Shown piece after piece: positions 35,376 to 63,084 of a stretch of 64,000 nt of DNA. The notes under the pieces are model-generated. The model saw nothing but the letters and a program-made list of their open reading frames with translations, had not been told where the DNA came from and ran no database searches. The stretch comes from Escherichia phage phiWec177. Where the stretch lies: the sequence record LC739532.1, one strand, 5' to 3'. Each line of letters opens with the position of its first letter. Positions within the stretch are counted from its first letter, which is position 1. The position numbers and the translations under genes were made by a program.

Positions 35376-37742
35376 ATGCGCATGGTAAATGACCACGCAG
35401 AAGTGATTAAGAGTTCAACTTCTTTGGAGACATCTCAAGCACAGATTACAATGACACCTGAAATGTTCAGCCTTTTGAGTTCTGGTGTATATACCTTTAA
35501 AGAAAGGGCAGTGATTCGTGAACTGTCATGTAACGCAGTAGATGCTCAGAAAGAAGCTGGAAAAGAGAATATCCCGTTCCATGTGCATTTACCTACTCGT
35601 TTTGAGCCTTACTTTGAAGTCCGTGATTTTGGAACTGGATTGACTCATGATAAAGTTATGAGTTTGTACCTAAACTACGGGGCTTCTACGAAGAATGACT
35701 CTAATGATTACATTGGTGCAATGGGTATCGGTTCAAAATCTCCATTTGCAATTGCTCAGTCATTCACAGTATCTAGCTATGTTGATGGTGTTGTTAATAA
35801 GTACTCTGTTTACCTTGAGAATGGTATCCCTCAAGTAACTAAGCTGACCACTAACCCAACAAAAGAACCTAATGGTTTAGCTGTACGTGTGGCAGTTGCT
35901 GACCACCGTATTTCAAAGTTCTTTGAAGAGGCTGGTCACGTATACTCATACTTTGCTGTAAAACCAGAAAGTAATATTGTATATGATGACGTGTTAGCAG
36001 ACATGAATGTCATTGCTCGTGAAGAAGGTGTTTATGACGCTATGATTCATAAGCAAAGCTGGCGTTCTAGTGGTAACAGGACAGAGTTTAATGTGGTGAT
36101 GGGTAATATTGCCTATCCAGTTAATATGGAAGCATTACTTGGTGATGATTTCTTCAAAGTCTTGCCAGAGTTTTTCCGTAGGAGCGTAGACCTTGTAAAC
36201 ATTTACATGCCTATTGGTTCAGTTGCTATTGCAGCTTCTCGTGAAGCATTGCAGATGAATGATACGACAAAAAATGTTATCATTGAGGCTACTAAAAAGA
36301 TAACTGAAGCCATTACAAAGGATGTTATCAAGAAAGTTAACAGCCAACCTACACTCATGGATGCTGCACAGGCTTATGCTGAGTTACGTTTGAACTCACG
36401 AGAGATGTTTAATGTTGTGTGTCCAAAGCTAGAGTGGGGAGGCGTTAAGCTTGATTCTCTGGAAGTAGAATTACTAAACATCCGTCGTGGGATTATCTAC
36501 GCAGAAGACGGCTCAGTCATTTATGAACGTGACGGTAAAGGTAATATCAAGGTTGATAGGAACGGGAACAATATCCCTAAAGTGGATTATCTTTATAATC
36601 CAGTTGCTTATGTCAAGTTCAACTCTTTAGAGAGTAAGATTCGTGCAACAGCACTTTCCTACACTCAAGAGGCAAGTATGTTCAATATCTTTGGTGCAAT
36701 GCGTAAAAGCCAAATTGAACAGTTTTTGTTCGTGATTAATGACCGTCGTAATAAAAATGGCACTGAGAAGACTGTAGGCCGCAATCAGATTCTGCGTGGT
36801 GCATGTCGAGATTACGCCAGTGAGTCAAGTCTGTTTCACAGATATAATGGTATTGTGTTTGTATTCTCGACTGAAAAAGAGCTAGATGACTTAATCAACC
36901 TACACAAACTTGATAAAAGCTTGTTAAAGATTGTGAAGATGTCTGATAAGGAACATCACTATCAGCGTAAAGAAGCTGTAAGAGGTGTTGTAAAACTCTG
37001 GAAAGCTGTTCCAGCAGAAGGTGTAGCCTCATACACAGAGGTGTCAGAAGACTTAGACACAATTGAAGAACCTCAGCTTTACATTAAGGCAGTTGGCGAC
37101 ACAGTTGATGGTGAATGTTTTTGCTCATCTCCAGAAGATGTAGCTAAGTCAGTTGCTAATGTTATAGGGAAGACAGTCTATGTTTTCCGAAAAGCAAATT
37201 GGAAAAAGATACCAGAAGACTGGATTGAAGTAGATGAGAAGCTCTTGAACGACAGCTTAACTGATGTTCATTGGATTAATCATAACAGGTATATGACACG
37301 CATCTGTATGCGTGGTGTCCTTAACCTTACAAGCTGTTGGATTATTACCAGAAACTTTACGTTCAATAACAGGAAGATTTCTGATGGTTATTGCTATTCA
37401 CGGGACACAAACAAAACTATCTTCCTAGAAGGTAATGAAGATGCTGTTGAGGCAATGTTCGGTAAAATCCAATACGTTGCTGCACAATTTGCATACACTT
37501 ACACTATTAGTGTGTTGCAAGATTTGAAAAGGTGTCTTGATAATGATACAAAGCTTTACAAGAAAATTAAGAAAGCTGGTGACCGTATGTTTATTAAGGT
37601 GACAAACTACTTCTCAAAAAGAAAACAAGAAAACTTCTTGCTTTCTCATTTAGATTGGAATAAAGTGTCACCCATCGAAGTGAGTAAGTTCTTGGGCTTT
37701 GATGTGAAGTGTGTTCCAGAAGGGACTACAATTTACGATTAA
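35376..37742 (+). CDS. rIIA: rIIA-like protein (N-terminal GHKL-type ATPase fold)
   Basis: 788 aa; AVIRELSCNAVDAQ, VRDFGTGL and GAMGIGSKSPF match GHKL ATPase N-box/G1/G2 as in T4 rIIA. Confidence 0.75.
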   Translation: MRMVNDHAEVIKSSTSLETSQAQITMTPEMFSLLSSGVYTFKERAVIRELSCNAVDAQKEAGKENIPFHVHLPTRFEPYFEVRDFGTGLTHDKVMSLYLNYGASTKNDSNDYIGAMGIGSKSPFAIAQSFTVSSYVDGVVNKYSVYLENGIPQVTKLTTNPTKEPNGLAVRVAVADHRISKFFEEAGHVYSYFAVKPESNIVYDDVLADMNVIAREEGVYDAMIHKQSWRSSGNRTEFNVVMGNIAYPVNMEALLGDDFFKVLPEFFRRSVDLVNIYMPIGSVAIAASREALQMNDTTKNVIIEATKKITEAITKDVIKKVNSQPTLMDAAQAYAELRLNSREMFNVVCPKLEWGGVKLDSLEVELLNIRRGIIYAEDGSVIYERDGKGNIKVDRNGNNIPKVDYLYNPVAYVKFNSLESKIRATALSYTQEASMFNIFGAMRKSQIEQFLFVINDRRNKNGTEKTVGRNQILRGACRDYASESSLFHRYNGIVFVFSTEKELDDLINLHKLDKSLLKIVKMSDKEHHYQRKEAVRGVVKLWKAVPAEGVASYTEVSEDLDTIEEPQLYIKAVGDTVDGECFCSSPEDVAKSVANVIGKTVYVFRKANWKKIPEDWIEVDEKLLNDSLTDVHWINHNRYMTRICMRGVLNLTSCWIITRNFTFNNRKISDGYCYSRDTNKTIFLEGNEDAVEAMFGKIQYVAAQFAYTYTISVLQDLKRCLDNDTKLYKKIKKAGDRMFIKVTNYFSKRKQENFLLSHLDWNKVSPIEVSKFLGFDVKCVPEGTTIYD

Positions 37743-37747
37743 AGTGT

Positions 37748-37777
37748 TTGACAAGGGGCTTCAAAGCCCCTTAGAAT
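37748..37777 (+). promoter_or_regulatory. sigma70-like promoter overlapping a hairpin
   Basis: TTGACA-18 bp-TAGAAT; spacer contains AGGGGCTT-CAAA-GCCCCTT hairpin. Confidence 0.4.
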
Positions 37778-37821
37778 ATCCTCACAAAATGATTTATTAA
37801 CTAACAAGAGAGAGTAATAAG

Positions 37822-42290: not shown

Positions 42291-43070
42291 ATGGGTATTG
42301 TAAAAGTTGTAAAAGGTAACTTACTAGCTGCCTTCAAAAACACAGACATTGAGTTAATTGCTCATGGTTGCAACTGTCGTAACCTCATGGGTGCTGGAAT
42401 CGCTCAAAAAATTGCTAAGATTTTCCCAAAAGCTGAAGAAGCTGACCGGAAGTTCCATAAAAAGTTTGGCTACAGTGCCCATGATATCGGATACCAGATG
42501 GCTGGTGAGGTGTCACATGCTCGAACGGAGTATGGTTACATTTTTAACCTATATACACAGTTGGATGTTGGGAAGTGTGCATCATACCGATACTTAGTGG
42601 AGTCACTAGAAAAACTCCGTAAATTTTGCTGGCTGCACAACATTCGTAAGATTGGTTTACCCATGATTGGGGCAGGTATAGGCGGTTTAGATGCACAAGC
42701 TGTGAAAAGCCTCATTAATAGTGTTATGTATAACGTTGATGTGTACCTATACGTCTATGATGAAGCAATGGCAAGTGTAGTTACCACTAAGTATGCTACC
42801 TCAGCACCACAATTCTATGATGGTGTCGTGCTAAGTGACGGGAAGACTAATCAAGTTACCCTCTATCAGCTTGTTGATGGCAAGGTTGAGGTTAGTTACC
42901 CTCTGGTTAGTGAGATGGGTATGTGTAACAGTGAAATGTTCCCAGTTGACCCGTTTGGAAGATATGAAGGTGTATTCTTTGATAACTACCCAGCAGCGTA
43001 CATCTACACAACAAATCAGGATGAAGTTCACTACTTGCTGTATTCTAAAAAGTTCAAATTCATAAGCTGA
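42291..43070 (+). CDS. macro domain protein (ADP-ribose binding/processing)
   Basis: VVKGNLLAAFKNTDIELIAHGCNCRNLMGAGIAQKI and later IGLPMIGAGIGGLD resemble macro-domain G-rich motifs. Confidence 0.6.
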   Translation: MGIVKVVKGNLLAAFKNTDIELIAHGCNCRNLMGAGIAQKIAKIFPKAEEADRKFHKKFGYSAHDIGYQMAGEVSHARTEYGYIFNLYTQLDVGKCASYRYLVESLEKLRKFCWLHNIRKIGLPMIGAGIGGLDAQAVKSLINSVMYNVDVYLYVYDEAMASVVTTKYATSAPQFYDGVVLSDGKTNQVTLYQLVDGKVEVSYPLVSEMGMCNSEMFPVDPFGRYEGVFFDNYPAAYIYTTNQDEVHYLLYSKKFKFIS

Positions 43071-43465: not shown

Positions 43466-43494
43466 TTGACACACAAAACAGGTTTACGTAATAT
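43466..43494 (+). promoter_or_regulatory. sigma70-like promoter
   Basis: TTGACA-17 bp-TAATAT upstream of the small-gene cassette. Confidence 0.5.
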
Positions 43495-43543
43495 TTGCAT
43501 CAGACGGGCAAGCAAGCCCACTCCCTAAACTGGAGATTCTAAA

Positions 43544-43750
43544 ATGTTATATCAACGCCAATTGATGATTGTAGACAATAACAAGACTAAAAAGCGCCGT
43601 TTCTTTATGCTTATTTGTGATGTATGGCAACGTATCTCAGAAAAGGATTTTGATAAATATGTTGATACATCAATCAGGTCAGATTGTTATTTGACAAATC
43701 ACACAAGACAGTTTACAAGACATACAGCAGTTTACTACTATGACGTTTAA
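43544..43750 (+). CDS. hypothetical small protein (cassette gene 1)
   Basis: Preceded by CCTAAACTGGAGATTCTAAAATG module. Confidence 0.45.
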   Translation: MLYQRQLMIVDNNKTKKRRFFMLICDVWQRISEKDFDKYVDTSIRSDCYLTNHTRQFTRHTAVYYYDV

Positions 43751-43761
43751 AAGGGCTTGAC

Positions 43762-43923
43762 AATGATTAAAGAAGGCAATGTAATAAGCTACAAAGATTT
43801 AGACGGATACCCAAAAATTGGGAAAGTTTTCTACCTTTACAAGTCAGTGATGGATAATGACTGCATAGCCCTAACAAATGGCGACAAGATAACCATGAAA
43901 GATTTTATAAAAATTATTTCATA
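43762..43923 (+). CDS. hypothetical small protein (cassette gene 2)
   Basis: 53-codon ORF MIKEGNVISYKDL... below track cutoff; fills gap before repeat A1. Confidence 0.3.
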
Positions 43924-44011
43924 AAGTGCTTTACATGGGGTTTAAAAAGGTAGTATCTTAAGCCCCAGATAAAGAGCTTTACCACTCAATCCTAAATTGG
44001 AGAACTTAAAA
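43922..44011 (+). repeat. intergenic module type A, copy 1
   Basis: Hairpin GGGGTTTAA...TTAAGCCCC then AGATAAAGAGCTTTACCACTCAATCCTAAATTGGAGAACTTAAAA before ATG. Confidence 0.7.
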
Positions 44012-44392
44012 ATGGCATACCGCGCACCGAAATTCATCAATAAAGAAAATTTTCGTAATGTATTAGAGAAGGCGCTTGATGAAAAATTTAACGGCAAAAT
44101 AATTGTTGTTCACTCGTTCAATTTTAAGTATGATATCAACGGGAATAAAATCAACCATTACACGGCAACCATGTTAGATGGTACTCTTTCAAGTGAAAAA
44201 ACAATTCTCCATGCACTTGCAGGACGTGGTAAAAACCTGATAAGATGCGATAAGAGACGTTATCAGGGTGGCGCATATGGTTATGATGATGCTGTTTATC
44301 ATCTTGAAAATATGGGCTATTCAGTGGAAAAAGCTGGAGTGTCTCAAATAATCGGCAGTGACGGCTATGTGACAATTTTCAAAATTAACTAA
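44012..44392 (+). CDS. hypothetical protein (cassette gene 3)
   Basis: ATG at 44012 after type A module; track ORF 43997 starts at upstream TTG. Confidence 0.45.
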   Translation: MAYRAPKFINKENFRNVLEKALDEKFNGKIIVVHSFNFKYDINGNKINHYTATMLDGTLSSEKTILHALAGRGKNLIRCDKRRYQGGAYGYDDAVYHLENMGYSVEKAGVSQIIGSDGYVTIFKIN

Positions 44393-44480
44393 TAAAGTAC
44401 TTTACAGGGGGCTTACAGTTCGATAAAGTAAGCCCCAGATAAAGAGCTTTACCACTCAATCCTAAACTGGAGTTTCAAAA
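44393..44480 (+). repeat. intergenic module type A, copy 2
   Basis: AAAGTACTTT palindrome, hairpin GGGGCTTAC...GTAAGCCCC, conserved AGATAAAGAGCTTTACCACTCAATCCTAAACTGGAG. Confidence 0.75.
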
Positions 44481-44777
44481 ATGAAACTATCAAATAAAGC
44501 CCGTGAAAATCTAAGCAAGTTACTTAACAAAATTGATTTTATTGAAACATCAAGGAATAGTCATGATGTTATGGAATGGTTACACGGCAAAATAAAAGGC
44601 CGTCGTGTAGTAATTTGCTTATGGAATAGTTGCAGGGAATATAAAAAACCTGTATTACAAGTCAATATCTACGATGATACTTTTAAAAGCCCTGTAAAGT
44701 CTAAAAGCGATTTATTAGAATCTTATGAGATAACTGTAAGTGGCAAAGTATCACGTAAAGAGGAAACACCGTGTTAA
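44481..44777 (+). CDS. hypothetical protein (cassette gene 4)
   Basis: Track ORF after module A2. Confidence 0.45.
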   Translation: MKLSNKARENLSKLLNKIDFIETSRNSHDVMEWLHGKIKGRRVVICLWNSCREYKKPVLQVNIYDDTFKSPVKSKSDLLESYEITVSGKVSRKEETPC

Positions 44778-45103
44778 TGACTGGTATCACTGCAATCATT
44801 GCCATTTTCGCGCTATATAAGGCATATAAAGCCTATAATCTAGCAAATAAGGCAATCACACAGCAGGTTAGCAATAACCTTGTAGAGAGCTTTCTAGGAC
44901 GCCTCAGTGATGAGCAAATAAAGCGGCTAGAGATGAGCTTCAGATATAAAGCGAAAACCTATCAGATAAGTGACATCTTCAAAGATGATTTTCAGTTAGT
45001 CGATGATTATAATTCACTGATAAATGCTTTGAATGTCAGTGACTTAAAAGATTATTACGTTGTAATTGTTCAAGAATTGAGCAAACGAAAAAATTCCTCT
45101 TGA
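44771..45103 (+). CDS. hypothetical membrane-anchored protein (cassette gene 5)
   Basis: N-terminal hydrophobic TGITAIIAIFALY. Confidence 0.4.
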   Translation: MLMTGITAIIAIFALYKAYKAYNLANKAITQQVSNNLVESFLGRLSDEQIKRLEMSFRYKAKTYQISDIFKDDFQLVDDYNSLINALNVSDLKDYYVVIVQELSKRKNSS

Positions 45104-45120
45104 TTTTGGTTTTTAAAACA

Positions 45121-45193
45121 AGTAAATTACTAATCAACGGTGAGGGAATGAACTTCCCCACTAAGTAAAGTCCTTAAACTAGGAGATTCAAAA
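45121..45193 (+). repeat. intergenic module type B, copy 1
   Basis: ATTACTAATCAACGG, hairpin GGGAATGAACTTCCC, then ACTAAGTAAAGTCCTTAAACTAGGAGATTCAAAAATG. Confidence 0.7.
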
Positions 45194-45466
45194 ATGTATA
45201 CTACTAACAACGGTCGCACTTTAAACGTAACCCTACGCCACTATGTGAACGGTGTAATGCACTTCGAGGATTTACAAGCCGAACAACACATTTTAGATTG
45301 GCAACTTGCAGGACTCCAAAAAACTGTTACAGGATACGGGAAAAAGATTCCAACTAGCTGGAAAGTATACTACGAAGGCCGTTTGCGCAGAATTTATCAA
45401 GATGTATACAGCAATAGCGCAACAAGTTACATCATGGTAAAAGGTAAAAAGCTGCATTTAGCATAA
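45194..45466 (+). CDS. hypothetical protein (cassette gene 6)
   Basis: Track ORF after module B1. Confidence 0.45.
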   Translation: MYTTNNGRTLNVTLRHYVNGVMHFEDLQAEQHILDWQLAGLQKTVTGYGKKIPTSWKVYYEGRLRRIYQDVYSNSATSYIMVKGKKLHLA

Positions 45467-45552
45467 AGTACTTTACAAGGGGCTTATAGTTCGATAAAGT
45501 AAGCCCCAGATAAAGAGCTTTACCACTCAATCCTAAACTGGAGAACTTAAAA
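45464..45552 (+). repeat. intergenic module type A, copy 3
   Basis: Near-identical to copy 2. Confidence 0.75.
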
Positions 45553-45957
45553 ATGGCTATTAATAACCGTGAATTATCAATTTTAAAAGCACGTTTGACC
45601 GTTAACCGGATTAATGTTATTACGTCATCAGCACCAGATGAAACATTGCACAGCATTATTGGGAAGATTCAAAGTATTATTTTAGACGTTGAAAACGTAA
45701 AAAGTTCATTGGCTGACGTTGCAGCAGGTATCACGCTAGACGGTGCGCAATATGAAATGATTGATATGCTAGGCAAATCTAAGGTAATGAATAGGGAGTT
45801 AGATTTGAAAATGTTTAGATTTGCTGTTAAAGTATGGCTATCCGTCGAGTATGACGCTAATTTTGCAATCGCTGATTTCTTTGCCACTTGGTTACAACGT
45901 AATTTGACAAATCACGATTTTCGTGATGTCTGTGATGCAATTTATGCAGAACTCTAA
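45553..45957 (+). CDS. hypothetical protein (cassette gene 7)
   Basis: Track ORF after module A3. Confidence 0.45.
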   Translation: MAINNRELSILKARLTVNRINVITSSAPDETLHSIIGKIQSIILDVENVKSSLADVAAGITLDGAQYEMIDMLGKSKVMNRELDLKMFRFAVKVWLSVEYDANFAIADFFATWLQRNLTNHDFRDVCDAIYAEL

Positions 45958-45966
45958 AAAATTTTG

Positions 45967-45995
45967 TTGACACTGATTTTTAGATAGGTTAAATT
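45967..45995 (+). promoter_or_regulatory. sigma70-like promoter
   Basis: TTGACA-17 bp-TAAATT just upstream of module B2. Confidence 0.45.
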
Positions 45996-46057
45996 ACACA
46001 TCAACGGGGAGGCGATAACCTCCCCACTAAATAAAGTCCTAAACTGGAGATTCTAAA
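45989..46057 (+). repeat. intergenic module type B, copy 2
   Basis: ATCAACGGGGAGGCGATAACCTCCCCACTAAATAAAGTCCTAAACTGGAGATTCTAAAATG. Confidence 0.75.
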
Positions 46058-46261
46058 ATGGCTATTATCAACGGCTTACACATTGAAACAACTCACATCA
46101 AAGATATTAAAGTTGGTGATATAGTTCTCTTTCACGGCGTAGAAAAAACTGTCACGGCGAAAGATATTACAGAAGAATCTTTCATGGGCCGGTCACTCTT
46201 CGGTGATTCTTATTGCTTAGGTTACCGTGCAGTTTTAAAAGTTGTCAAAAATAACAAATAA
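46058..46261 (+). CDS. hypothetical small protein (cassette gene 8)
   Basis: Track ORF after module B2. Confidence 0.45.
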   Translation: MAIINGLHIETTHIKDIKVGDIVLFHGVEKTVTAKDITEESFMGRSLFGDSYCLGYRAVLKVVKNNK

Positions 46262-46346
46262 AGTACTTTACAAGGGGCTTAAAAGTTGGTATCTTAAGCC
46301 CCAGATAAAGAGCTTTACCACTAAATCCTAAACTGGAGATTCAAAA
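46259..46346 (+). repeat. intergenic module type A, copy 4
   Basis: AAAGTACTTT, hairpin GGGGCTTAA...TTAAGCCCC, AGATAAAGAGCTTTACCACTAAATCCTAAACTGGAG. Confidence 0.75.
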
Positions 46347-46889
46347 ATGAAATGCTTTCATGGTACTACTCAAGAAAACTTTATCAACCTGATTAATAAC
46401 GGTGATAAACCATCGGGCGCATGGAATTGTTCGGATATGGACGGCAATTTTTACGTTTATCCAGAAAATAAAATCTATGGCGACGATGAGGAAGAGATAA
46501 CAGCCGAAGGTATCCAACAAGCTCTAGGCAATGCCACTATCACCGCAGCTTTTCAGATGAAGACTCAAAATATTGTTATCTTAGAACTCGATATTCCAGA
46601 GGATGAGCTAAACGATGATTATTCTTGTGATAATATGTCGAGTGTAGCAAGTTTTACAGAGTACTTTGATGTAAGTTGGATTAAAAAGGTTTACGTAACA
46701 GAATTTAATGCGATGTATTCGCCTTTTTGTCTTCCTTCACTGGATAACCCAAATATGAACTATCTTGATGAGTCTCTGGAGCTTCTCGCTAAAAGTGTTC
46801 AACAGTCGGACAGTATTCAGGTTTTTTGTGACATCATGGATACACTAACGGGAAACATCACAGAGAGAGACTTAAAGAGCTTTTTTTAA
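46347..46889 (+). CDS. hypothetical protein (cassette gene 9)
   Basis: 180 aa, acidic; no motif recognised. Confidence 0.45.
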   Translation: MKCFHGTTQENFINLINNGDKPSGAWNCSDMDGNFYVYPENKIYGDDEEEITAEGIQQALGNATITAAFQMKTQNIVILELDIPEDELNDDYSCDNMSSVASFTEYFDVSWIKKVYVTEFNAMYSPFCLPSLDNPNMNYLDESLELLAKSVQQSDSIQVFCDIMDTLTGNITERDLKSFF

Positions 46890-46919
46890 AACCTATACAA
46901 TCACCTTATAAACACTAAT

Positions 46920-46942
46920 CAGCCCCTTACAGGGGCTTTTAG
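46920..46942 (+). terminator. rho-independent terminator
   Basis: AGCCCCT-TAC-AGGGGCT then TTT. Confidence 0.55.
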
Positions 46943-46954
46943 AGGGCTTAAATC

Positions 46955-47188
46955 ATGCTAACAACCGTTTATCTCATCCTCTCAATTTGTAATGGCCATT
47001 CATGCGATTTTAAAGGGCTTGAGGAGTTTACAGGGAGTAAAGAGAATGCTGTTCAAGTTTGCCAGATAGCAAGGCAAGACTATCCCGCAAGTGATGATAT
47101 ACAATGTTACTTTAAGACAGAAGATGACGAAGGAATCTATTTCGACAGTGTTGATGGACAATATGAGATTATCATTGAAAAAGACTAG
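46955..47188 (+). CDS. hypothetical small protein (cassette gene 10)
   Basis: Hydrophobic N-terminus with Cys; possible exported protein. Confidence 0.4.
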   Translation: MLTTVYLILSICNGHSCDFKGLEEFTGSKENAVQVCQIARQDYPASDDIQCYFKTEDDEGIYFDSVDGQYEIIIEKD

Positions 47189-47204
47189 ACAAGCCTGATA
47201 AAAA

Positions 47205-47279
47205 TCTGTAAATTGTCAATCAACGGGGGGGGGGAATGACCTTCCCCACTAAATAAAGTCCTAAACTGGAGATTCTAAA
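47205..47279 (+). repeat. intergenic module type B, copy 3
   Basis: AATCTGTAAATTGTCAATCAACGGGGGGGGGAATGACCTTCCCCACTAAATAAAGTCCTAAACTGGAGATTCTAAA. Confidence 0.75.
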
Positions 47280-47528
47280 ATGTATACTAAAACGCAACTT
47301 AAAAGCATGGTTAACAATGGTTTAATGGATGAAGTCTACAAAGAATGTAGACGCTATGGAAAAATCATGGATAAGTCTAGTTATGAGTATACTCACACAA
47401 TAGATTTCAAAACTAATGAAAAACAAACTGACTTTATCACTGTAATAGTTATTGAATATAAACACTTGCTGTGGACTTTTGAGCTAGTAAAAGGTGAGTG
47501 TATAGAAATCGAATACAAAGACGCTTAA
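47280..47528 (+). CDS. hypothetical small protein (cassette gene 11)
   Basis: Track ORF after module B3. Confidence 0.45.
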   Translation: MYTKTQLKSMVNNGLMDEVYKECRRYGKIMDKSSYEYTHTIDFKTNEKQTDFITVIVIEYKHLLWTFELVKGECIEIEYKDA

Positions 47529-47607
47529 AAGTACTTTACAGGGGGCTTAAAAGTTGATATCTTAAGCCCCCAGATAAAGAGCTTTCCTAAACTGGAGATT
47601 CAAAAAG
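47526..47607 (+). repeat. intergenic module type A, copy 5 (shortened)
   Basis: AAAGTACTTT, hairpin GGGGGCTTAA...TTAAGCCCCC, AGATAAAGAGCTTTCCTAAACTGGAG. Confidence 0.7.
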
Positions 47608-47754
47608 ATGACACATACTATTGAGACAGTTTTTAACAACCCTGTATTCTCAGAGATGATTTTCTCATTTGTCATGATGTTACTAGTAAAAACCATGAAA
47701 AAAGCAGAAAAACTGCATTTAAAGAAAAAATCTATTGTAAACCGTCTTAAGTAA
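47608..47754 (+). CDS. hypothetical small membrane protein (cassette gene 12)
   Basis: 48-codon ORF MTHTIETVFNNPVFSEMIFSFVMMLLVKTMKK... below track cutoff. Confidence 0.35.
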   Translation: MTHTIETVFNNPVFSEMIFSFVMMLLVKTMKKAEKLHLKKKSIVNRLK

Positions 47755-47800
47755 AGATAAAGTATCTAGCAATCTCACTTCCTAAACTGGAGAATCTAAA

Positions 47801-48142
47801 ATGGCTTATGTAACCGTAATTACCGATAAAGAGAATTCATCTTGGTCAACTCAGGTTAGTGACAAGATGTCACCTATGCAGTGCCTAAAATACTTTGAAC
47901 AGTGGAATAGAGGTGAGGATACAAGCCCCTTTCAAGTGATGCAGATTATCCATACAGATAACGAAGGGAATAAAACGACTTTAAATAGTGAGTACTACGC
48001 AAGCCGTTTTGAAACGAGAAGTAGAACAATGAAGCTTCTACGTGAATCCGGTTATGCTCATATTGCCGCTCTAATCTGGGATGACCTGCTAAAAAGTCAG
48101 CGTATCAGCTATGTAAAACCTGAAAAAATATTCATCAGTTAA
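47801..48142 (+). CDS. hypothetical protein (cassette gene 13)
   Basis: Preceded by short CCTAAACTGGAGAATCTAAAATG module. Confidence 0.45.
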   Translation: MAYVTVITDKENSSWSTQVSDKMSPMQCLKYFEQWNRGEDTSPFQVMQIIHTDNEGNKTTLNSEYYASRFETRSRTMKLLRESGYAHIAALIWDDLLKSQRISYVKPEKIFIS

Positions 48143-48291
48143 TCAATAACTTACAAAAAACTTTTAAAAAAGTGTTGACAATACCCCTTGACATTGGTAA
48201 CTTTGTTCGAGGGGGTTTATCTAAAAGGGATTCACTTAAAAGATTCTTTATAGATAAGCTTAAAAATTGCTTGCATTCAACTATCAAAACA

Positions 48292-48361
48292 AGTAAATTA
48301 CTAATCAACGGGGAGGCAATAACATCCCCACTAAATAAAGTCCTAAACTGGAGATTCTAAA
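48292..48361 (+). repeat. intergenic module type B, copy 4
   Basis: ATTACTAATCAACGGGGAGGCAATAACATCCCCACTAAATAAAGTCCTAAACTGGAGATTCTAAA. Confidence 0.75.
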
Positions 48362-48892
48362 ATGAACAAATTTCAAGCTATCAACCACATTCGTTCAAAT
48401 AGTGTCATGTCTAAGCCTGTTAAAGACACATATGAGTTCCGTTGTAATGGGGTACACTTTGCAACCATCACTAAATCAGAAAACGGGGCTTATTACGTTC
48501 ATCGTCGTAATGTTTATACCGTTGTAGTCTCTCACTTTATGCAAGCTGTAGCAGAGTTATTACCGTTATTCTTAGAGATTTACTTAGATGAGTGTAAAAA
48601 CGTTCACAACCACGTTAAAAACCTTTTAAACGGTTATAAAATGGCTTATGAGCGTTCTATCAAGTCCTTAAACAAGTTCTATAAAGCCCCTGCAAATACT
48701 GTTTCAATGGCTTACAGTGTAAGCGGTGAGTTGGTTAGTCTCTTCGAAGTGGAAGAAATCGAACTATATAACTCACGCCCTAGCGGTTACTCTAAGACAC
48801 TGGGAGAGGGCTTATCTTTCAATATCAAGAACTTAGAGAAAACTTTAAAAGATATTGAAAAAGATATTGACGAGACAATCAAAAATCTGTAA
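48362..48892 (+). CDS. hypothetical protein (cassette gene 14)
   Basis: 176 aa; its 3' end is part of repeat module B5. Confidence 0.45.
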   Translation: MNKFQAINHIRSNSVMSKPVKDTYEFRCNGVHFATITKSENGAYYVHRRNVYTVVVSHFMQAVAELLPLFLEIYLDECKNVHNHVKNLLNGYKMAYERSIKSLNKFYKAPANTVSMAYSVSGELVSLFEVEEIELYNSRPSGYSKTLGEGLSFNIKNLEKTLKDIEKDIDETIKNL

Positions 48893-48959
48893 ATTGTCAA
48901 TCAACGGGGAGGGAATGACCTTCCCCACTAAATAAAGTCCTAAACTGGAGATTCTAAAA
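48876..48959 (+). repeat. intergenic module type B, copy 5
   Basis: Near-identical to copy 3, including upstream AAAATCTGTAAATTGTCAATCAACGG. Confidence 0.75.
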
Positions 48960-49207
48960 TGGCAACTATCCGCGCCACTGTTAACGAATTTGGTTTTTAC
49001 TCTCTGGATGTTAAATTTGACCTTGTAGGCACTGACAACGCCTTTGAAATGGTGAAAGGTCTTATCAGTCAGACCATCAAGGACTATAACCCCTCTAATG
49101 AGTTCTGGAAAGAAACAAAACAGGAAGTTCTTAAAGATGGTTACACTTTTCACTATTGGGGTGAAAAAATCGTCTCCCTGTACTACGACAAAGAAGGCAC
49201 TAACTAA
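48960..49207 (+). CDS. hypothetical small protein (cassette gene 15)
   Basis: Track ORF after module B5; last plus-strand gene before the noncoding region. Confidence 0.45.
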
Positions 49208-49245
49208 ACACCGCAGCGGGGCTAAATAGCCCCAGATACCTGAAC

Positions 49246-49270
49246 AGCCCCTATTTAAAGGGGCTTTTTT
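49246..49270 (+). terminator. rho-independent terminator
   Basis: AGCCCCT-ATTTAA-AGGGGCT then TTTTTT; preceded by second hairpin CGGGGCTAAATAGCCCCAG. Confidence 0.6.
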
Positions 49271-49446
49271 ACGTCTATTGAATTCTTATACAATCCCTTT
49301 CCCTCACCTTCCTAGAATCTTATCAGACCTTAAAAGCAATAACTCTATAGTCTACTCTATAACCTCTTATCAAATCAACTAAGTGGCATTGTTACCAATC
49401 CCTTAAATATAAGCCCATAACCCGAAAGGGAAGGGCAATCCCTTAA

Positions 49447-49526
49447 ACGCTCTATAACGCTCTATAACGCTCTATAACGCTCTATAACGCTCTATAACGC
49501 TCTATAACGCTCTATAACGCTCTATA
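49447..49526. repeat. tandem repeat, 8 copies of 10-bp unit ACGCTCTATA
   Basis: Perfect head-to-tail copies read directly. Confidence 0.9.
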
Positions 49527-49715
49527 ACGCTCTATAACAGCCTTATCAACCTAACTTAAGCAATCATATTAACCCACTCTAAAAAGCCCTTTATAGAGCT
49601 TCTCAGAGCCTTAAAAGAATCTTATAAGGGTGTAAGCTTTATCGTCTCGTTAGTATTCTTGTGAATATCTAAAAAGGACTTGTTAGTGTCTTAAAAGTAT
49701 GTTATAGGGGCTATG

Positions 49716-49800
49716 AAGTTACGTAAAAGTAGCTTAAAAGTAGCTTAAAAGTTACGTAAATGCTAGCCCCCTTAACATTTTCTTAACAATTTCTTAACAA
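49716..49800. repeat. nested direct repeats (GTTACGTAAAA / GTAGCTTAAAA x2 / CTTAACAATTT x3)
   Basis: AGTTACGTAAAAGTAGCTTAAAAGTAGCTTAAAAGTTACGTAAA then CTTAACATTTTCTTAACAATTTCTTAACAA. Confidence 0.8.
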
Positions 49801-49826
49801 TCCCTACATAGTTATACTTTTAAGGC

Positions 49827-59735: not shown

Positions 59736-59812
59736 CTCTGTTTAGCTCAGCTTGGTAGAGCGTTCCGTTTGGGGCGGTAAGGCCGGAGGTTCAAGTCCTC
59801 CAACAGAGACCA
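59736..59812 (+). tRNA. tRNA-Pro (anticodon TGG), tentative
   Basis: Acceptor CTCTGTT/AACAGAG, D-arm GCTC..GAGC, loop TTTGGGG, T-arm GGAGG-TTCAAGT-CCTCC, CCA encoded. Confidence 0.7.
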
Positions 59813-59819
59813 AATTAAT

Positions 59820-59894
59820 GTCGTAGAAGGCAAATGGTTAGCCACCTGACCTTCAATCAGTTGCTCGCGGGTTCGAATCCCGTCTACGACTCCA
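59820..59894 (+). tRNA. tRNA (anticodon TTC, Glu?) tentative
   Basis: Acceptor GTCGTAG/CTACGAC, T-arm GCGGG-TTCGAAT-CCCGT, CCA; anticodon loop CCTTCAA. Confidence 0.6.
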
Positions 59895-59977
59895 AATTTG
59901 ACAGAAGACCAAGTACAGCAAACAACTTTACTTTTCGCGCATAGAAAACTTAAAATTTTGGTCTGGTCATAAAAGTT

Positions 59978-60054
59978 CGCGGGTATAGAGAAAGGGCGTC
60001 TCACATGTCTCATTAGCATGGTATCGGCAGGTTCGACTCCTGCACCCGCCTCCA
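59978..60054 (+). tRNA. tRNA (anticodon CAT; Met or Ile2)
   Basis: Anticodon arm CATGT-CTCATTA-GCATG, T-arm GCAGG-TTCGACT-CCTGC, CCA. Confidence 0.65.
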
Positions 60055-60138
60055 AATTTACAGAAGACCGTTTACAGCAACATTTATTAAATTTTTAGCG
60101 GAAAAAATTGAAAGATACGGTCTGGTAATACTAAACAT

Positions 60139-60214
60139 GGTTAGGAAGCACATAAGGTATGTGCGGTCGCCTGTTAAGCGAATGGCACAGGGTTCGAATC
60201 CCTGACTAACCGCA
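60139..60214 (+). tRNA. tRNA-Asn (anticodon GTT), tentative
   Basis: D-arm GCAC..GTGC, anticodon loop CTGTTAA, T-arm CAGGG-TTCGAAT-CCCTG; 3' end lacks full CCA. Confidence 0.6.
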
Positions 60215-60223
60215 AAATTAAAT

Positions 60224-60311
60224 GTGTCGTTATCCCGTAGATGGTAGCGGTGGGGACTGTAAATCCCTTGTCATTGAGACTCGGTAGGTTCGACTCCTAC
60301 ACGGCACACCA
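60224..60311 (+). tRNA. tRNA-Tyr (anticodon GTA), class II
   Basis: Acceptor GTGTCGT/ACGGCAC, anticodon arm GGGGA-CTGTAAA-TCCCT, long variable arm, T-arm GTAGG-TTCGACT-CCTAC, CCA. Confidence 0.7.
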
Positions 60312-60333
60312 ACACTTAGCGAGATACTTAGTT

Positions 60334-60762
60334 ATGAGAGATGAAGTATACAAATCACAACTTGGTATGAGTTTGGGAACTGCACAAAACAGACTAGTAA
60401 AAGATTTGCTATTCGATTTTATATGTAAGACAAATCAAAATAGATGTTTTCAGTGCGGAAAAGAAATGACTAGGGATGATTTCTCTATCGAGCATAAGAT
60501 TCCGTGGAGACATAGTGAGAATGCAAAAGAGCTTTTCTTTTCACTAGATAATATTTCTTATAGTCATCTTAAATGTAACATGAAAGCAGCAAGACCAGCA
60601 CAGATAAGTGAAAGAAAACATAAAACAATTAAACACGGAACTGCGTATAGCTATTTTAAAGGCTGTAGATGCGATGAGTGTAGGCTGGCTAAGAATGCTG
60701 AGAGTAGAAGAAACTATAGTCCAGAAAGACGTAGGAAGAAGTATCTAAGAAATGGTACATGA
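60334..60762 (+). CDS. HNH endonuclease inside the tRNA array
   Basis: Start at internal Met (MRDEVYK...) of track ORF 60241-60762, whose N-terminal part overlaps tRNA-Tyr; CFQCGKEM...SIEHKIPW...N...HLKCN HNH pattern. Confidence 0.7.
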   Translation: MRDEVYKSQLGMSLGTAQNRLVKDLLFDFICKTNQNRCFQCGKEMTRDDFSIEHKIPWRHSENAKELFFSLDNISYSHLKCNMKAARPAQISERKHKTIKHGTAYSYFKGCRCDECRLAKNAESRRNYSPERRRKKYLRNGT

Positions 60763-60766
60763 ATTT

Positions 60767-60842
60767 GGGGTATTAGTTTAGACGGGTAAAATACGGGATT
60801 GTCTCTCCTGAGCCGCGAGTTCGATTCTCGCATACCTCGCCA
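60767..60842 (+). tRNA. tRNA-Asp (anticodon GTC), tentative
   Basis: Acceptor GGGGTAT/ATACCTC, anticodon arm CGGGA-TTGTCTC-TCCTG, T-arm GCGAG-TTCGATT-CTCGC, CCA. Confidence 0.6.
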
Positions 60843-61270
60843 ATTTTGAGAGGGCTATTTAGCCCCTCCCTTAAAGAGTTCTTACGAGTATTCTTTAAAG
60901 GAGCAGAAGACCAAATTCAGCAAGTTACTTAAAATTTCAAGCCAATTTAATTTTGAAAAATTTAAAACTTGGTCTGGCTCAACAAATTTACAGAAGACCG
61001 TTTACAGCAAAACTTAAACAATCTATTTCTCGGTAAAGAAAAGGCGAAGGTTCGATTCCTTCACTCGGCAGATGTCGAGTTGGTGTAATGGTAGCACTTA
61101 AGATGATAAACAACGGTCTGGTAATTATCTTTGTAGATAAGTTATTAAGCTTACCTGTGAGTATGCGACCACAAAGGGTGAAAGGGTAAATTCTAGATTT
61201 AAACCCAAAAAGGCACATCGCTACAGACCTTAAGCAAGTCTGGGTAGCTTATCTACAAAGATAATTTAAT

Positions 61271-61346
61271 GGAAGTGTAGCAGAATGGTGATGCGGCAGA
61301 CTTTTAATCTGACAGGCGATGGGTTCGAATCCCTCCACTTCTACCA
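61271..61346 (+). tRNA. tRNA-Lys (anticodon TTT)
   Basis: Anticodon loop CTTTTAA, T-loop TTCGAAT, acceptor GGAAGTG/CACTTCT, CCA; T-stem only 3 clear pairs. Confidence 0.6.
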
Positions 61347-61351
61347 AAAAT

Positions 61352-61428
61352 GGTTCAGTCGCAGATAAGGTAATGCAAGGGTCTCATAAGCCCTATGAAT
61401 GTGGGTTCGATTCCCATCTGAACCTCCA
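61352..61428 (+). tRNA. tRNA (anticodon CAT; Met/fMet or Ile2)
   Basis: Acceptor GGTTCAG/CTGAACC, anticodon loop CTCATAA, T-arm GTGGG-TTCGATT-CCCAT, CCA. Confidence 0.7.
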
Positions 61429-61430
61429 AT

Positions 61431-61506
61431 GCTGTGAAAGCACATATGGATGTGCATTCGGCTGATAACCGAAAGGCAGAAGGTTCAAATCCTTCTCACA
61501 GTACCA
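61431..61506 (+). tRNA. tRNA-Ile (anticodon GAT)
   Basis: Acceptor GCTGTGA/TCACAGT, D-arm GCAC..GTGC, anticodon arm TTCGG-CTGATAA-CCGAA, T-arm GAAGG-TTCAAAT-CCTTC, CCA. Confidence 0.75.
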
Positions 61507-61521
61507 ATTTCAATAAAGTTG

Positions 61522-61550
61522 TTGACATTGAGATGTGACTACTTTATAGT
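61522..61550 (+). promoter_or_regulatory. sigma70-like promoter inside tRNA array
   Basis: TTGACA-17 bp-TATAGT. Confidence 0.5.
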
Positions 61551-61754
61551 AACCTTAGTTTTCGTTGCGTAGCGTCTATTTTGCAAATTTAAAATAAATG
61601 CAAACGACAATGTTTTTCTGGCAGTAGCTTGATAGGCTAAACACCAGTGAGGTCTTCCAATCCCTCATCAAAGAATTTGGCGTACTCGCCCACGGTATGA
61701 TTAATAAGGTGGGCATCTTTAAGGGCTTTCTAAGAGAGTCTTTAAAGATAATTA

Positions 61755-61836
61755 CGGGGCGTATCTCAGCTGTCTTCTAAACAGCCGTTAACCGAGTAAG
61801 TGGAGTATGCGGGTTCGAGTCCTGCCGCCTCGACCA
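61755..61836 (+). tRNA. non-canonical tRNA-like element (Arg TCT-like anticodon arm, no clear D-arm)
   Basis: Acceptor CGGGGCG/CGCCTCG, perfect arm GCTGT-CTTCTAA-ACAGC, T-arm GCGGG-TTCGAGT-CCTGC, CCA; only 7 nt between acceptor and anticodon arm, 23 nt before T-arm. Confidence 0.4.
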
Positions 61837-61979
61837 ATTTAGTTAGCAGATTACTTAGACGACCTAAGCGGGTCTTCCTGTAGGGAGGTGGTCTGTATCT
61901 CATGTTTTCAAGAACATGTAAATAATCTGAGAAGGGGCTTTACAGTGTTGAGATAATACGGTAAGCTTCGAATTATAGT

Positions 61980-62062
61980 ATGGGACGATGTTAAGACTCT
62001 AAGGCATGAGCAACGGCCTCCAAAACCGTTTCAAAGGGGTTCAACTCCTCCGTCCCATGCCA
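61980..62062 (+). tRNA. non-canonical tRNA-like element (anticodon undetermined)
   Basis: Acceptor ATGGGAC/GTCCCAT with CCA, T-loop TTCAACT; internal stem AACGG-CCTCCAAAA-CCGTT has a 9-nt loop. Confidence 0.4.
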
Positions 62063-62075
62063 AAGTCTTATTAGG

Positions 62076-62165
62076 GGTAGGTAGCGGCTAATGGTAGCCA
62101 AACTGTCTTGAAAACAGTTGCCACTGTAGAGATACGGTGAGGGTTCGACTCCTTTACTTACCGCC
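62076..62165 (+). tRNA. tRNA-Ser (anticodon TGA), class II
   Basis: 3-bp D-stem, anticodon arm ACTGT-CTTGAAA-ACAGT, about 20-nt variable arm, T-arm GAGGG-TTCGACT-CCTTT; CC only at 3' end. Confidence 0.65.
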
Positions 62166-62423
62166 TAATAAGATTTAATTCCCGCGCTCGTCTAACAAGC
62201 TCGGTTTTTACTCGTGTATTGGCGTACACGGCACGACTATAAAGCACCTAGTAGGTGTCGCGGAGAAGAGATAGTATCAAGCTCTCCAAAGGTTCTAGTC
62301 ACCGGATTAAACAAGACTATGCAAAGACCTTTTTAGGTCTTTTTAGAGGGCTTCTAAGGTTATTACAGCTTGTTGTGGAACCTTGTTGCTTAGGTTCTTA
62401 GAAGTTCTCTAAAAAGGTTTAAT

Positions 62424-62501
62424 GGGAGATTGACGGTAATTGGTAAACCTACCATCCTTAGAAGTTGGTGTTTGAGGGTTCGAATCCCTTGTCTCCCACC
62501 A
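62424..62501 (+). tRNA. tRNA (anticodon TAG?, Leu-like but short variable arm), tentative
   Basis: Acceptor GGGAGAT/GTCTCCC, T-arm GAGGG-TTCGAAT-CCCTT, CCA; anticodon arm has one mismatch. Confidence 0.5.
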
Positions 62502-62508
62502 AATTAAT

Positions 62509-62584
62509 GCAGGTGTAGCAAAATGGTTATGCGGCTGACTCTTAATCAGTAAGACGATGGGTTCAATTCCCTCCACCTGTACCA
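62509..62584 (+). tRNA. tRNA-Lys (anticodon CTT), paralog of 61271-61346
   Basis: Anticodon loop CTCTTAA, acceptor GCAGGTG/CACCTGT, CCA; same weak T-stem as the TTT copy. Confidence 0.6.
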
Positions 62585-62590
62585 AACAAT

Positions 62591-62666
62591 GGGGTCATAG
62601 TTTATATGGTTAAAATTCGAGTTTTGCAAACTTGGGAACTGAGTTCAATTCTCAGTGACTCCACCA
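62591..62666 (+). tRNA. tRNA-Ala (anticodon TGC)
   Basis: Acceptor GGGGTCA/TGACTCC, anticodon arm CGAGT-TTTGCAA-ACTTG, T-arm CTGAG-TTCAATT-CTCAG, CCA. Confidence 0.7.
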
Positions 62667-62672
62667 ATTAGT

Positions 62673-62747
62673 GCATCCATAGTTTAAACGGGAAAATTAC
62701 AGTCTTCCAAACTGAGGTTGAGGGTTCGATTCCCTCTGGATGCTCCA
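62673..62747 (+). tRNA. tRNA-Gly (anticodon TCC)
   Basis: Acceptor GCATCCA/TGGATGC perfect, anticodon loop CTTCCAA, T-arm GAGGG-TTCGATT-CCCTC, CCA. Confidence 0.75.
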
Positions 62748-62753
62748 AATAAT

Positions 62754-62830
62754 GCTGCTTTCGTATAATTGGCTATTACACATCCCTTGTAAGGATGGAG
62801 ATGCGGGTTCAAGTCCTGTGAGCAGCACCA
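62754..62830 (+). tRNA. tRNA-Thr (anticodon TGT)
   Basis: Anticodon arm CATCC-CTTGTAA-GGATG perfect, acceptor GCTGCTT/GAGCAGC, CCA. Confidence 0.75.
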
Positions 62831-62925
62831 ATTCAGAGGTCAAGTGAAAGACCGCTGGTGTCAACTGAAGACCGTAACAAATTCCACGGAGTTGAGTTAG
62901 CGGCACAACTTCAGACCTCTTTCAC

Positions 62926-63000
62926 ACTCGCTTAGTTTATATGGTAAAACATCACCCTTACAAGATGAAGAAAAAGGTTCAAGTCCTTTAGTGAGTACCA
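62926..63000 (+). tRNA. tRNA-Val (anticodon TAC), tentative
   Basis: T-arm AAAGG-TTCAAGT-CCTTT perfect, acceptor ACTCGCT/AGTGAGT, anticodon loop CTTACAA, CCA. Confidence 0.6.
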
Positions 63001-63001
63001 T

Positions 63002-63079
63002 GTTCCAGTATCCCAATTGGCAGAGGATGCAAGCTCAAACCTTGTATTAGTGACGGTTCGAATCCGTCTTGGAACACCA
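63002..63079 (+). tRNA. tRNA (anticodon CAA?), tentative
   Basis: T-arm GACGG-TTCGAAT-CCGTC perfect, acceptor GTTCCAG/TTGGAAC, anticodon arm GCAAG-CTCAAAC-CTTGT, CCA; short variable arm is unusual for Leu. Confidence 0.55.
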
Positions 63080-63084
63080 ATTTT

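Follow-up and report, generated by a model that had tools for sequence, protein, structure and literature searches.

We describe an array of small genes in a 64,000-nt stretch of DNA (hereafter, the window) from Escherichia phage phiWec177 (LC739532.1), a Felix O1-like myovirus (Ounavirinae, Felixounavirus), in which two families of repeated intergenic modules, types A and B, probably act as promoter-hairpin-ribosome binding site (RBS) expression cassettes and also as recombination linkers. The array occupies positions 43466-49271 and comprises 15 small plus-strand open reading frames (ORFs; 43544-49207), five type A modules and five type B modules, all of them elements that an earlier note, made from the letters of the sequence alone, had correctly described. 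That note regarded each module as a hairpin joined to an RBS and had not recognized the sigma70-like promoters in both types; with these included, the modules read as autonomous expression cassettes. The feature is real, non-random and well conserved.

This reading would place 11 predicted early promoters within 5.8 kb and would explain why the region shows the highest variability in gene content; for engineering purposes, the modules would offer natural self-expressing sites for the insertion of payload genes. Felix O1-like phages find wide use in typing, biocontrol and therapy for Salmonella and E. coli. The authors of the Felix O1 genome paper stated that the organization of transcription in these phages was not known to them, and literature searches for an earlier interpretation of the repeats, or for Felix O1 or Felixounavirus transcriptomes, found none in the library searched. 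The repeats themselves have been listed before: the Felix O1 paper reports 57-bp and 39-bp direct repeats between genes 15/16, 19/20, 18/19 and 20/21, which correspond to types A and B, in the wV8 GenBank record the modules are labelled DR_1 to DR_9, and in the Mordin record a 14-nt repeat is marked ahead of the RBS. These listings give sequences only and assign no promoters, hairpin structure, covariation or role in gene shuffling.

The region matches Escherichia phage phiWec172 with 100% identity. Matches occur in 256 phage records, in no single one of which does a contiguous alignment extend over 80% of it, a first sign of mosaicism. It forms the distal end of a block of large plus-strand ORFs spanning approximately 13.2 kb to 49.2 kb, and is flanked upstream by a macro-domain "phosphatase" gene (42291-43070) and downstream by a 1.7-kb gene-free, repeat-rich region followed by minus-strand genes.

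Organization of the modules

Ten of the 15 genes, numbered here in order, lie directly behind a type A or type B module. The earlier description of nearly every gene as preceded by one of these modules thus holds for the majority; gene 1 follows a B-like entry module (P1), gene 13, encoding a 113-aa protein, follows an RBS-only remnant, and the genes at 43763, 44771 and 46955 have no module upstream. Type B was likewise correctly located, with the qualification that it begins approximately 40 nt further upstream than had been drawn and so takes in both a -35 and a -10 hexamer. Individual elements, with the Shine-Dalgarno (SD) sequence indicated where assigned, are as follows.

43466-43546, plus strand: P1, entry promoter module (B-like); -35 TTGACA 43466-43471, N17, -10 TAATAT 43489-43494, hairpin GGGCAAGCAAGCCC 43506-43519, RBS core CCTAAACTGGAG 43524-43535, ATG 43544
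43922-44014, plus strand: A1; -35 TTTACA 43930-43935, N18, -10 TATCTT 43954-43959, hairpin 43937-43966, SD 43999, ATG 44012
44393-44483, plus strand: A2; -35 44401-44406, N17, -10 TAAAGT 44424-44429, hairpin 44407-44436, ATG 44481; flanking palindromes TAAAGTACTTTA 44393-44404 and TAAAGAGCTTTA 44440-44451
45100-45196, plus strand: B1; -35 TTGATT 45100-45105, N17, -10 TAAATT 45123-45128, hairpin 45139-45159, ATG 45194
45464-45555, plus strand: A3; -35 45472-45477, N17, -10 TAAAGT 45495-45500, hairpin 45479-45507, ATG 45553
45967-46060, plus strand: B2; -35 TTGACA 45967-45972, N17, -10 TAAATT 45990-45995, hairpin GGGGAGGCGATAACCTCCCC 46006-46025, ATG 46058
46259-46349, plus strand: A4; -35 46267-46272, N17, -10 TATCTT 46290-46295, hairpin 46274-46302, ATG 46347
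46921-46941, plus strand: weak terminator-like site inside the array; short hairpin AGCCCCTTACAGGGGCT, then TTTT
47186-47282, plus strand: B3; -35 TAGACA 47186-47191, -10 47209-47214, hairpin 47225-47247, ATG 47280
47527-47610, plus strand: A5, with a leader deletion; -35 47535-47540, -10 TATCTT 47558-47563, hairpin 47541-47571, ATG 47608
47755-47803, plus strand: RBS-only remnant (AGATAAAG...CCTAAACTGGAGAATCTAAAATG) preceding gene 13; promoter and hairpin both missing
48143-48262, plus strand: structured 120-nt spacer before B4, with two overlapping TTGACA hexamers
48271-48364, plus strand: B4; -35 TTGCAT 48271-48276, -10 48294-48299, weak hairpin 48310-48329, ATG 48362
48867-48961, plus strand: B5; -35 TTGACG 48867-48872 (inside gene 14), -10 TAAATT 48890-48895, hairpin 48906-48926, ATG 48959
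49218-49271, plus strand: end of the array; hairpin GGGGCTAAATAGCCCC 49218-49233, then an A-like CAGATA, then terminator AGCCCCTATTTAAAGGGGCT with T6 at 49246-49271

Modules and genes are closely interlocked. As had been observed from the sequence, B5 reaches into the gene upstream: the TAA stop of gene 14 supplies the first three bases of its -10 TAAATT, and the TAG stop of gene 10 similarly supplies the first bases of the B3 -35 TAGACA. The B3 hairpin carries a run of ten G residues (47225-47234) where other copies have four; because the deposited phiWec172 record begins exactly where this run ends, the length of the run may be an assembly artefact.

The common RBS core, CCTAAACTGGAG, occurs 11 times when up to one mismatch is allowed, always within 43524-48950 and nowhere else in the 64 kb, a count reached in none of 100 shuffles; GGAG stands 8-10 nt upstream of the ATG in all ten modules. 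Among 158 copies of the core from 14 phages only two forms exist, CCTAAA[CT]TGGAG (94) and CCTTAAA[CT]TAGGAG (64), with no hybrids, such that the T and A insertions are perfectly linked. Together these would add one base pair to a predicted UCC(U)/(A)GGA mini-stem over the SD sequence.

Conserved promoter-like elements

Alignments were made of 52 type A copies and 57 type B copies, drawn from the window and 11 relatives. A wider set of 85 A-like copies from 16 genomes in three genera of Ounavirinae (Felixounavirus, Mooglevirus and Kolesnikvirus) was obtained by adding wV8, Mordin (Mooglevirus) and two Erwinia-type phages (Kolesnikvirus). Type A conforms to a sigma70-like TTTACA-N17/18-TAnnnT, with TAAAGT or TATCTT at -10. 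Its -35 is invariant in the 52 Felixounavirus copies, and while the loop columns are only 50-60% conserved, T38, A39 and T43 are retained in 100% of these copies; they correspond to -12T, -11A and -7T of a -10 element lying 17 bp from the -35. In the wider set, TAnnnT at a spacing of N17/18 is kept in 79 of 85 copies across the three genera, despite differing hairpin sequences.

Type B presents a -35-like TTGnnn hexamer, N17 and TAAATT. The -10 is invariant in all 57 copies, and the -35 falls in gene-specific sequence outside the repeat; six unrelated upstream contexts are represented among these copies, and in each a -35-like hexamer (TTGACA, TTGATT, TAGACA, TTGCAA/T, TTGACG or TTGCAA) stands exactly 17 bp before TAAATT, the chance of a match at four or more of six positions being approximately 0.047 per context. 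P1 (TTGACA-N17-TAATAT at 43466) is the best match to the sigma70 consensus in the region, at 10 of 12 positions. From these patterns of conservation, the assignment of sigma70-like promoters to both module types is well supported. Predicted starts of transcription lie at 44436-44438, 45507-45509, 46302-46304 and 47570-47572 for type A, and at 45135-45137, 46002-46003, 47221-47223, 48306-48308 and 48902-48904 for type B. As an alternative -10 for type A, which would have made it parallel to type B, we considered TAAAGT within the first palindrome; only A2 has a suitable -35 upstream (GTGACA, N18), A3 and A4 having none, and this assignment was rejected. In Felix O1, reverse transcription PCR placed the maximum for ORFs 16, 20, 21 and 22 of the array at 5 min after infection, timing that fits use of the host polymerase.

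Structure and selection of the hairpins

The type A hairpin, GGGGCTTA...TAAGCCCC, covers the spacer, -10 and discriminator of the promoter, its stem beginning 1 nt after the -35 and enclosing the -10. The type B stem begins approximately 10 nt after the -10; if transcription starts 7-8 nt after TAAATT, the hairpins of type B and P1 would lie 2-4 nt past the predicted start. Predicted RNA folds gave z-scores of -5.1 and -3.7 for two type A copies and of -3.6, -2.3 and -1.7 for three type B copies. With both of its palindromes, TAAAGTACTTTA and TAAAGAGCTTTA, the A2 RNA is predicted to form a 20-bp two-tier hairpin in which coaxial helices of 11 bp and 9 bp are joined by a 3x3 internal loop (dG -24.2, z -5.1).

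Evidence of selection on pairing comes from the inner stem of type A, which is 99.4% paired in the 52 copies and includes compensatory changes. Across the 85 A-like copies pairs 1-7 are never broken, and double changes occur at pairs 3, 5, 7, 8 and 9, including G-C to U-A and U-A to A-U. Type B comprises 34 distinct hairpin sequences in 57 copies, nearly all folding at -10 to -15 kcal/mol. Sense strands fold more stably than their reverse complements (type A, -12.5 versus -10.8 kcal/mol; type B, -11.0 versus -9.5 kcal/mol; p about 0.001-0.003, values that overstate independence, as the copies are related to one another), and 44 G·U pairs were counted against 13 A·C mismatches. Both the strand asymmetry and this excess indicate a hairpin that would work in the sense RNA. 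In one phage, REP8, differently compensated stem variants coexist (GGGGTTTA/TAAACCCC and GGTGCTTA/TAAGCACC), which fits selection for base pairing and not for recognition by one DNA-binding protein.

Processing or termination was the role that the earlier note proposed for the hairpins. A U-tract follows none of the ten in the modules, the next sequence being AGATAAAGAGCT or ACTAAATAAAGT, whereas most other perfect GC-rich hairpins of the window have a T-run directly after them; a terminator scan of the plus strand called no module hairpin. A G/C stem with a U-tract occurs at 49246-49271, which is Felix O1 terminator "t23" (Felix O1 paper, Table 2), and weakly at 46921-46941, whose equivalent in the wV8 GenBank record is annotated as a Rho-independent terminator. 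Canonical termination at the modules is accordingly unlikely, and was dropped as a candidate role for want of a T-run; what stands is that these are covarying stems behaving as sense-strand RNA structures, for which a part in RNA processing or stabilization is plausible. An Rfam scan returned only four sub-threshold chance matches.

The combination of hairpin and promoter recurs outside the array. In total, eight hairpin-in-promoter sites are present in the window, against 0.41 expected from shuffles. At the rIIA/rIIB junction (37741-37783), a stop codon is followed by AAGTG-TTGACA-AGGGGCTTCAAAGCCCCT-TAGAAT, with the TTGACA at 37749 and the whole hairpin contained within the 18-bp spacer, its arms (GGGGCTT/AAGCCCC) being as in type A. 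Further sites occur at 28667 on the plus strand, where the hairpin is also a true terminator with a T-run, and at 9105 on the minus strand. The Erwinia phages carry TTGACA-N18-TAAAAT within GGGGGTTAAAATCCCCC, and in the Kolesnikvirus "TTGCAA" copies the hairpin is kept and both flanking palindromes are missing.

Exchange of gene-plus-module units

Gene maps of 12 phages share one backbone order, upon which whole gene-plus-module units are present or absent. The variable units contain genes for proteins of 126, 85/96, 170, 67, 180+77, 82+48, 87 and 82 aa, and every one has same-family modules, or the common RBS core, at its borders; read from sequence, the hairpins that follow the 170-aa gene in relatives are full type A variants. 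Gene 13 itself is preceded by a full B module in phages that lack genes 11 and 12, and the deletion junction of gene 15 falls in CGGGG, in the 5' arm of a hairpin. Comparison with relatives thus showed content varying by units, and the same genes without the repeats were not seen.

The modules carry almost no signal of position. Distances between copies at the same position in different genomes (A, 0.11; B, 0.16) are about the same as those between copies at different positions (A, 0.13-0.14; B, 0.16-0.19), and the ortholog is the sole nearest neighbor for only 6 of 52 type A and 6 of 57 type B copies. Loop and RBS variants are reassorted at a single position, and variants private to a genome recur at non-orthologous positions, as do GGGGTTTA/TAAACCCC in REP8 and TTTATCACTCAAT in IME338. 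The modular, recombination-prone island suggested by the earlier note is borne out by these comparisons. Type A occurs at 1458 places in 288 phage records and type B at 1239 places in 251 records, nearly all of them Ounavirinae.

Proposed function of the modules

We propose that the array is the distal, hyperplastic part of a long rightward early gene block, built from self-contained expression cassettes, in which each module would fuse a host sigma70 promoter, a G/C-clamped sense-RNA stem-loop and a standard A/U-rich leader with CCTAAACTGGAG. Promoter activity, the positions of transcription starts and the effect of the hairpins on RNA are predictions from sequence. Type A transcripts would start at the ...CCCC/AGA junction, just 3' of the hairpin, so that the hairpin would be present only in read-through RNA from upstream, where it may label the 3' terminus of the preceding message and protect it. 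An mRNA started at type B or P1 would carry the hairpin as a 5'-terminal stem-loop, a stabilizer arrangement. The 5' untranslated region of ompA is a 5'-terminal stabilizing stem-loop; type B and P1 would resemble it in placing a stable hairpin approximately 2-4 nt from a predicted 5' end, a geometry protecting against 5'-end-dependent decay. As 80-100-bp repeats that unrelated genes have in common, the modules would provide portable homology, and recombination and gene conversion between them would insert, delete and reshuffle gene-plus-module units among Felix O1-like phages. The placement of a -10 element in a hairpin loop would be an uncommon promoter geometry that is directly testable.

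Several observations weigh against this proposal. A consensus scan called all five type A promoters and four of five type B, but by itself it was not significant (36 sites versus 28.4 ± 5.9 in shuffles of this AT-rich region), and the promoter case therefore rests on conservation. The type A -10 hexamers TAAAGT and TATCTT are weak and stand beside a G/C-rich discriminator; B4 offers only TTGCAT at -35 and a degenerate stem. The outer, lower helix of type A is invariant, leaving only thermodynamics behind it, and the relatedness of copies tempers the strand comparison as indicated. Felix O1 genes differ in the timing of expression by reverse transcription PCR (5 min for some, 25 min for others) and do not sort by module type, and literature searches for transcript data on Felix O1-like phages found none in the library searched.

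Relation to promoter-early stem-loop cassettes

The closest known system is the promoter-early stem-loop (PeSL) cassette of T4-like phages (Arbiol et al. 2010, PMC2839356; Comeau et al. 2014, PMC4122927), and the modules would represent a variant of it that is new in geometry and in phage subfamily. In both systems a sigma70-like early promoter, a G/C-rich stem-loop, an SD sequence and a start codon are combined in short, repeated intergenic cassettes, which cluster in a hyperplastic region of small ORFs with unknown function and border sites where close relatives differ by insertion, deletion or replacement. Type A is similar to the T4/PST promoter consensus TTTACW-N17-TAYWAT. A sigma70-like promoter within the repeat (by sequence and conservation), an SD sequence and start codon at its 3' end, and clustering next to indels are all found here; a stem-loop upstream of its own -35 is not. 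The PeSL stem-loop lies just upstream of the -35 (PMC4122927), whereas here it is inside the promoter (type A) or just past the predicted start (type B). The present modules differ also in lineage (Ounavirinae rather than T4-like), in hairpins without a U-tract, and in having two alternating module families with one common RBS core. The idea of regulatory cassettes as gene-exchange linkers would thereby reach beyond T4-like phages to a myovirus subfamily unrelated to them, suggesting that the design is convergent.

Alternative explanations

In phage T7, early genes are separated by RNase III processing sites. By analogy, a polycistronic early RNA could run from P1 (43466) to the terminator at 49246-49271, and the module hairpins could be endonuclease sites that yield stable monocistronic mRNAs, with type A as a T7-like RNase III site. 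Much of the hairpin evidence suits this account, including the two-tier fold of type A, the sense-strand bias, the lack of U-tracts, and the fact that a single strong promoter opens the array and a single canonical terminator closes it. Type A, as predicted to fold, also resembles the T7 sites: an intergenic hairpin of approximately 20 bp that contains an internal loop and stands directly behind a stop codon, ahead of the following RBS, in an early operon read by host polymerase; a cut there would leave the upstream mRNA with a protective hairpin at its 3' end. However, the lower helix has no support from covariation and both palindromes are missing from the Kolesnikvirus "TTGCAA" copies; type B stems, at 7-8 bp, are too short for RNase III; and the conserved positions of -35 and -10 are not accounted for, the type A element encoding a predicted promoter that T7 sites do not. 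We consider this account on balance unlikely. An RNase III cut 3' of the type A internal loop would generate the same 5' end as the type A promoter, and processing and promoters can coexist.

A specific form of such coexistence, for which we hold rather low expectations, is that type A is a dual-coded 60-nt boundary, acting as DNA through a sigma70 promoter with its -10 in the loop and as RNA through a two-tier hairpin cleaved or trimmed at the point of initiation. Were this so, the downstream gene would receive the same mRNA 5' end from a local or an upstream start, and the upstream mRNA would gain a protective 3' hairpin; the sites at 37749, 28667 and 9105, together with those of the Erwinia phages, would then reflect a general design rule of Ounavirinae and a standard junction for cassette exchange.

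Strict insulation of the PeSL type, in which the stem-loops stop or attenuate transcription from upstream and each gene is expressed from its own promoter only, is an account we likewise think unlikely. PeSL stem-loops with G-runs and C-runs do cut read-through in reporter assays (PMC2839356), the module hairpins are G/C-clamped and exactly at gene boundaries, and the hairpin-in-promoter site at 28667 is a true terminator. Against it, the ten module hairpins lead into AGATAAAGAGCT or ACTAAATAAAGT in place of the T-run that follows most comparable hairpins of the window, and the plus-strand terminator scan passed over all of them.

Quite improbable is a function at the level of DNA, in which the inverted repeats, along with TAAAGTACTTTA and TAAAGAGCTTTA, would be operators that time or shut off early transcription, or attC-like targets of a recombinase. 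It draws on the two almost invariant 12-bp palindromes over the -35 and at +3 to +14 of type A, on a hairpin that always starts one base past the -35, and on the speculation of the PeSL authors about a protein recognizing GGGG...CCCC. The palindrome centers are separated by approximately 47 bp, a distance that does not make up an integral number of helical turns, and an operator or cruciform role is disfavored by the coexisting compensated variants of REP8, by the excess of G·U over A·C and by the strand asymmetry, the last two of which are indicative of RNA. Compared with an integron-like array, the module stems are perfect, sense-biased hairpins of RNA type. To our knowledge, Felix O1-like phages are lytic, and we know of no integrase or recombinase reported in them.

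Finally, the repeats could be selfish or neutral, spread by duplication and gene conversion with the RBS alone functional, as high identity, evident concerted evolution and the frequency of promoter-like hexamers in AT-rich DNA might allow; this is very improbable given compensatory stem changes in three genera with pairs 1-7 intact in 85 copies, invariance of exactly three key -10 positions in a variable loop, -35-like hexamers retained in six unrelated contexts, and an architecture kept in Erwinia phages despite different sequences.

Gene products

The earlier finding of no recognizable motif in the products was upheld: a Pfam scan of all 15 proteins gave no match above threshold, and each product falls in its own PHROG family of unknown function (E 1e-29 to 1e-92). 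The genes, all on the plus strand, are as follows.

43544-43750, plus strand: gene 1, 68 aa; phrog_5293, E 9e-38; no Pfam match
43763-43924, plus strand: gene 2, 53 aa; phrog_14219, E 3e-35; no module upstream
44012-44392, plus strand: gene 3, 126 aa; phrog_4495; missing in Felix O1, SWJM-02 and EC106
44481-44777, plus strand: gene 4, 98 aa; phrog_4401
44771-45103, plus strand: gene 5, 110 aa; phrog_4375; GTG start; no module upstream
45194-45466, plus strand: gene 6, 90 aa; phrog_3436
45553-45957, plus strand: gene 7, 134 aa; phrog_4327; in all 12 compared phages
46058-46261, plus strand: gene 8, 67 aa; phrog_3623
46347-46889, plus strand: gene 9, 180 aa; tentative assignment to an ADP-ribosyltransferase-like fold
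46955-47188, plus strand: gene 10, 77 aa; phrog_4640; no module upstream
47280-47528, plus strand: gene 11, 82 aa; phrog_23636; variable, in 4 of 12 phages
47608-47754, plus strand: gene 12, 48 aa; phrog_31746; variable, in 5 of 12 phages
47801-48142, plus strand: gene 13, 113 aa; phrog_4318
48362-48892, plus strand: gene 14, 176 aa; phrog_4725
48959-49207, plus strand: gene 15; phrog_4559

The GTG start of gene 5 overlaps the stop of gene 4 (translational coupling), and the PHROG alignment places this GTG two residues upstream of an ATG. The 180-aa product of gene 9 may have an ADP-ribosyltransferase-like fold, an assignment of low to moderate confidence; H5, Y36/Y38 and E80 are invariant or nearly so, and a search of PDB sequences with the family profile found nothing. 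In a PhageMaP preprint on Bas63, in which the array corresponds to bas63_0098-0111, the homologue of this protein (g107) was more important on host S17-1 and was assigned a weak Tpt1-like fold. This fold and the host-dependent importance of g107 are the only two leads, both within a single protein family, toward the host-takeover or anti-defence content that the earlier note suggested. The 180-aa protein and the macro-domain protein (ADP-ribose-binding or hydrolase) encoded just upstream of the array could form an ADP-ribosylation writer/eraser pair in host takeover.

A fold search with the 176-aa product of gene 14 gave generic coiled-coil matches only; homologues of this gene belong, by precomputed assignment, to the Pfam family PF26821, which our local scan of the window protein did not report. 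The 90-, 67- and 176-aa proteins formed one family ("F0") in our own clustering; their PHROG assignments differ, and the grouping, which was not used, is therefore attributed to ORFs extended through the shared module.

Neighboring sequences

The structured spacer before B4 (48143-48262) is predicted to fold as RNA into two hairpins (dG -32.6, z -4.8), and its conservation extends to Felix O1, VpaE1 and skuden. A small RNA, a leader or an additional promoter could reside there. Upstream of the array, between the terminator of the macro-domain gene and P1 (43100-43460), lie three repeats, two of them approximately 45 bp apart, with the core CATTTT(C/A)(A/G)AA..GTGCAG. Read on the minus strand these give repeated (T)GAAAATGATTTTTCT starts ("KMIFL"), and small minus-strand ORFs are annotated around the equivalent sequence in Bas63 and Mordin.

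Downstream, the gene-free region between the terminator of the array and the first minus-strand gene (49270-50970) contains nine tandem copies of AACGCTCTAT at 49446-49538, many copies of CTTGTTAG/CTGTTAAG, often 11 bp apart, and inverted arrays. It is conserved, with no annotated genes, in 256 phage records and is a candidate replication origin or packaging region. Elsewhere in the window, 17 tRNA genes are clustered at 59736-63160, as is ordinary for Felix O1-like phages.

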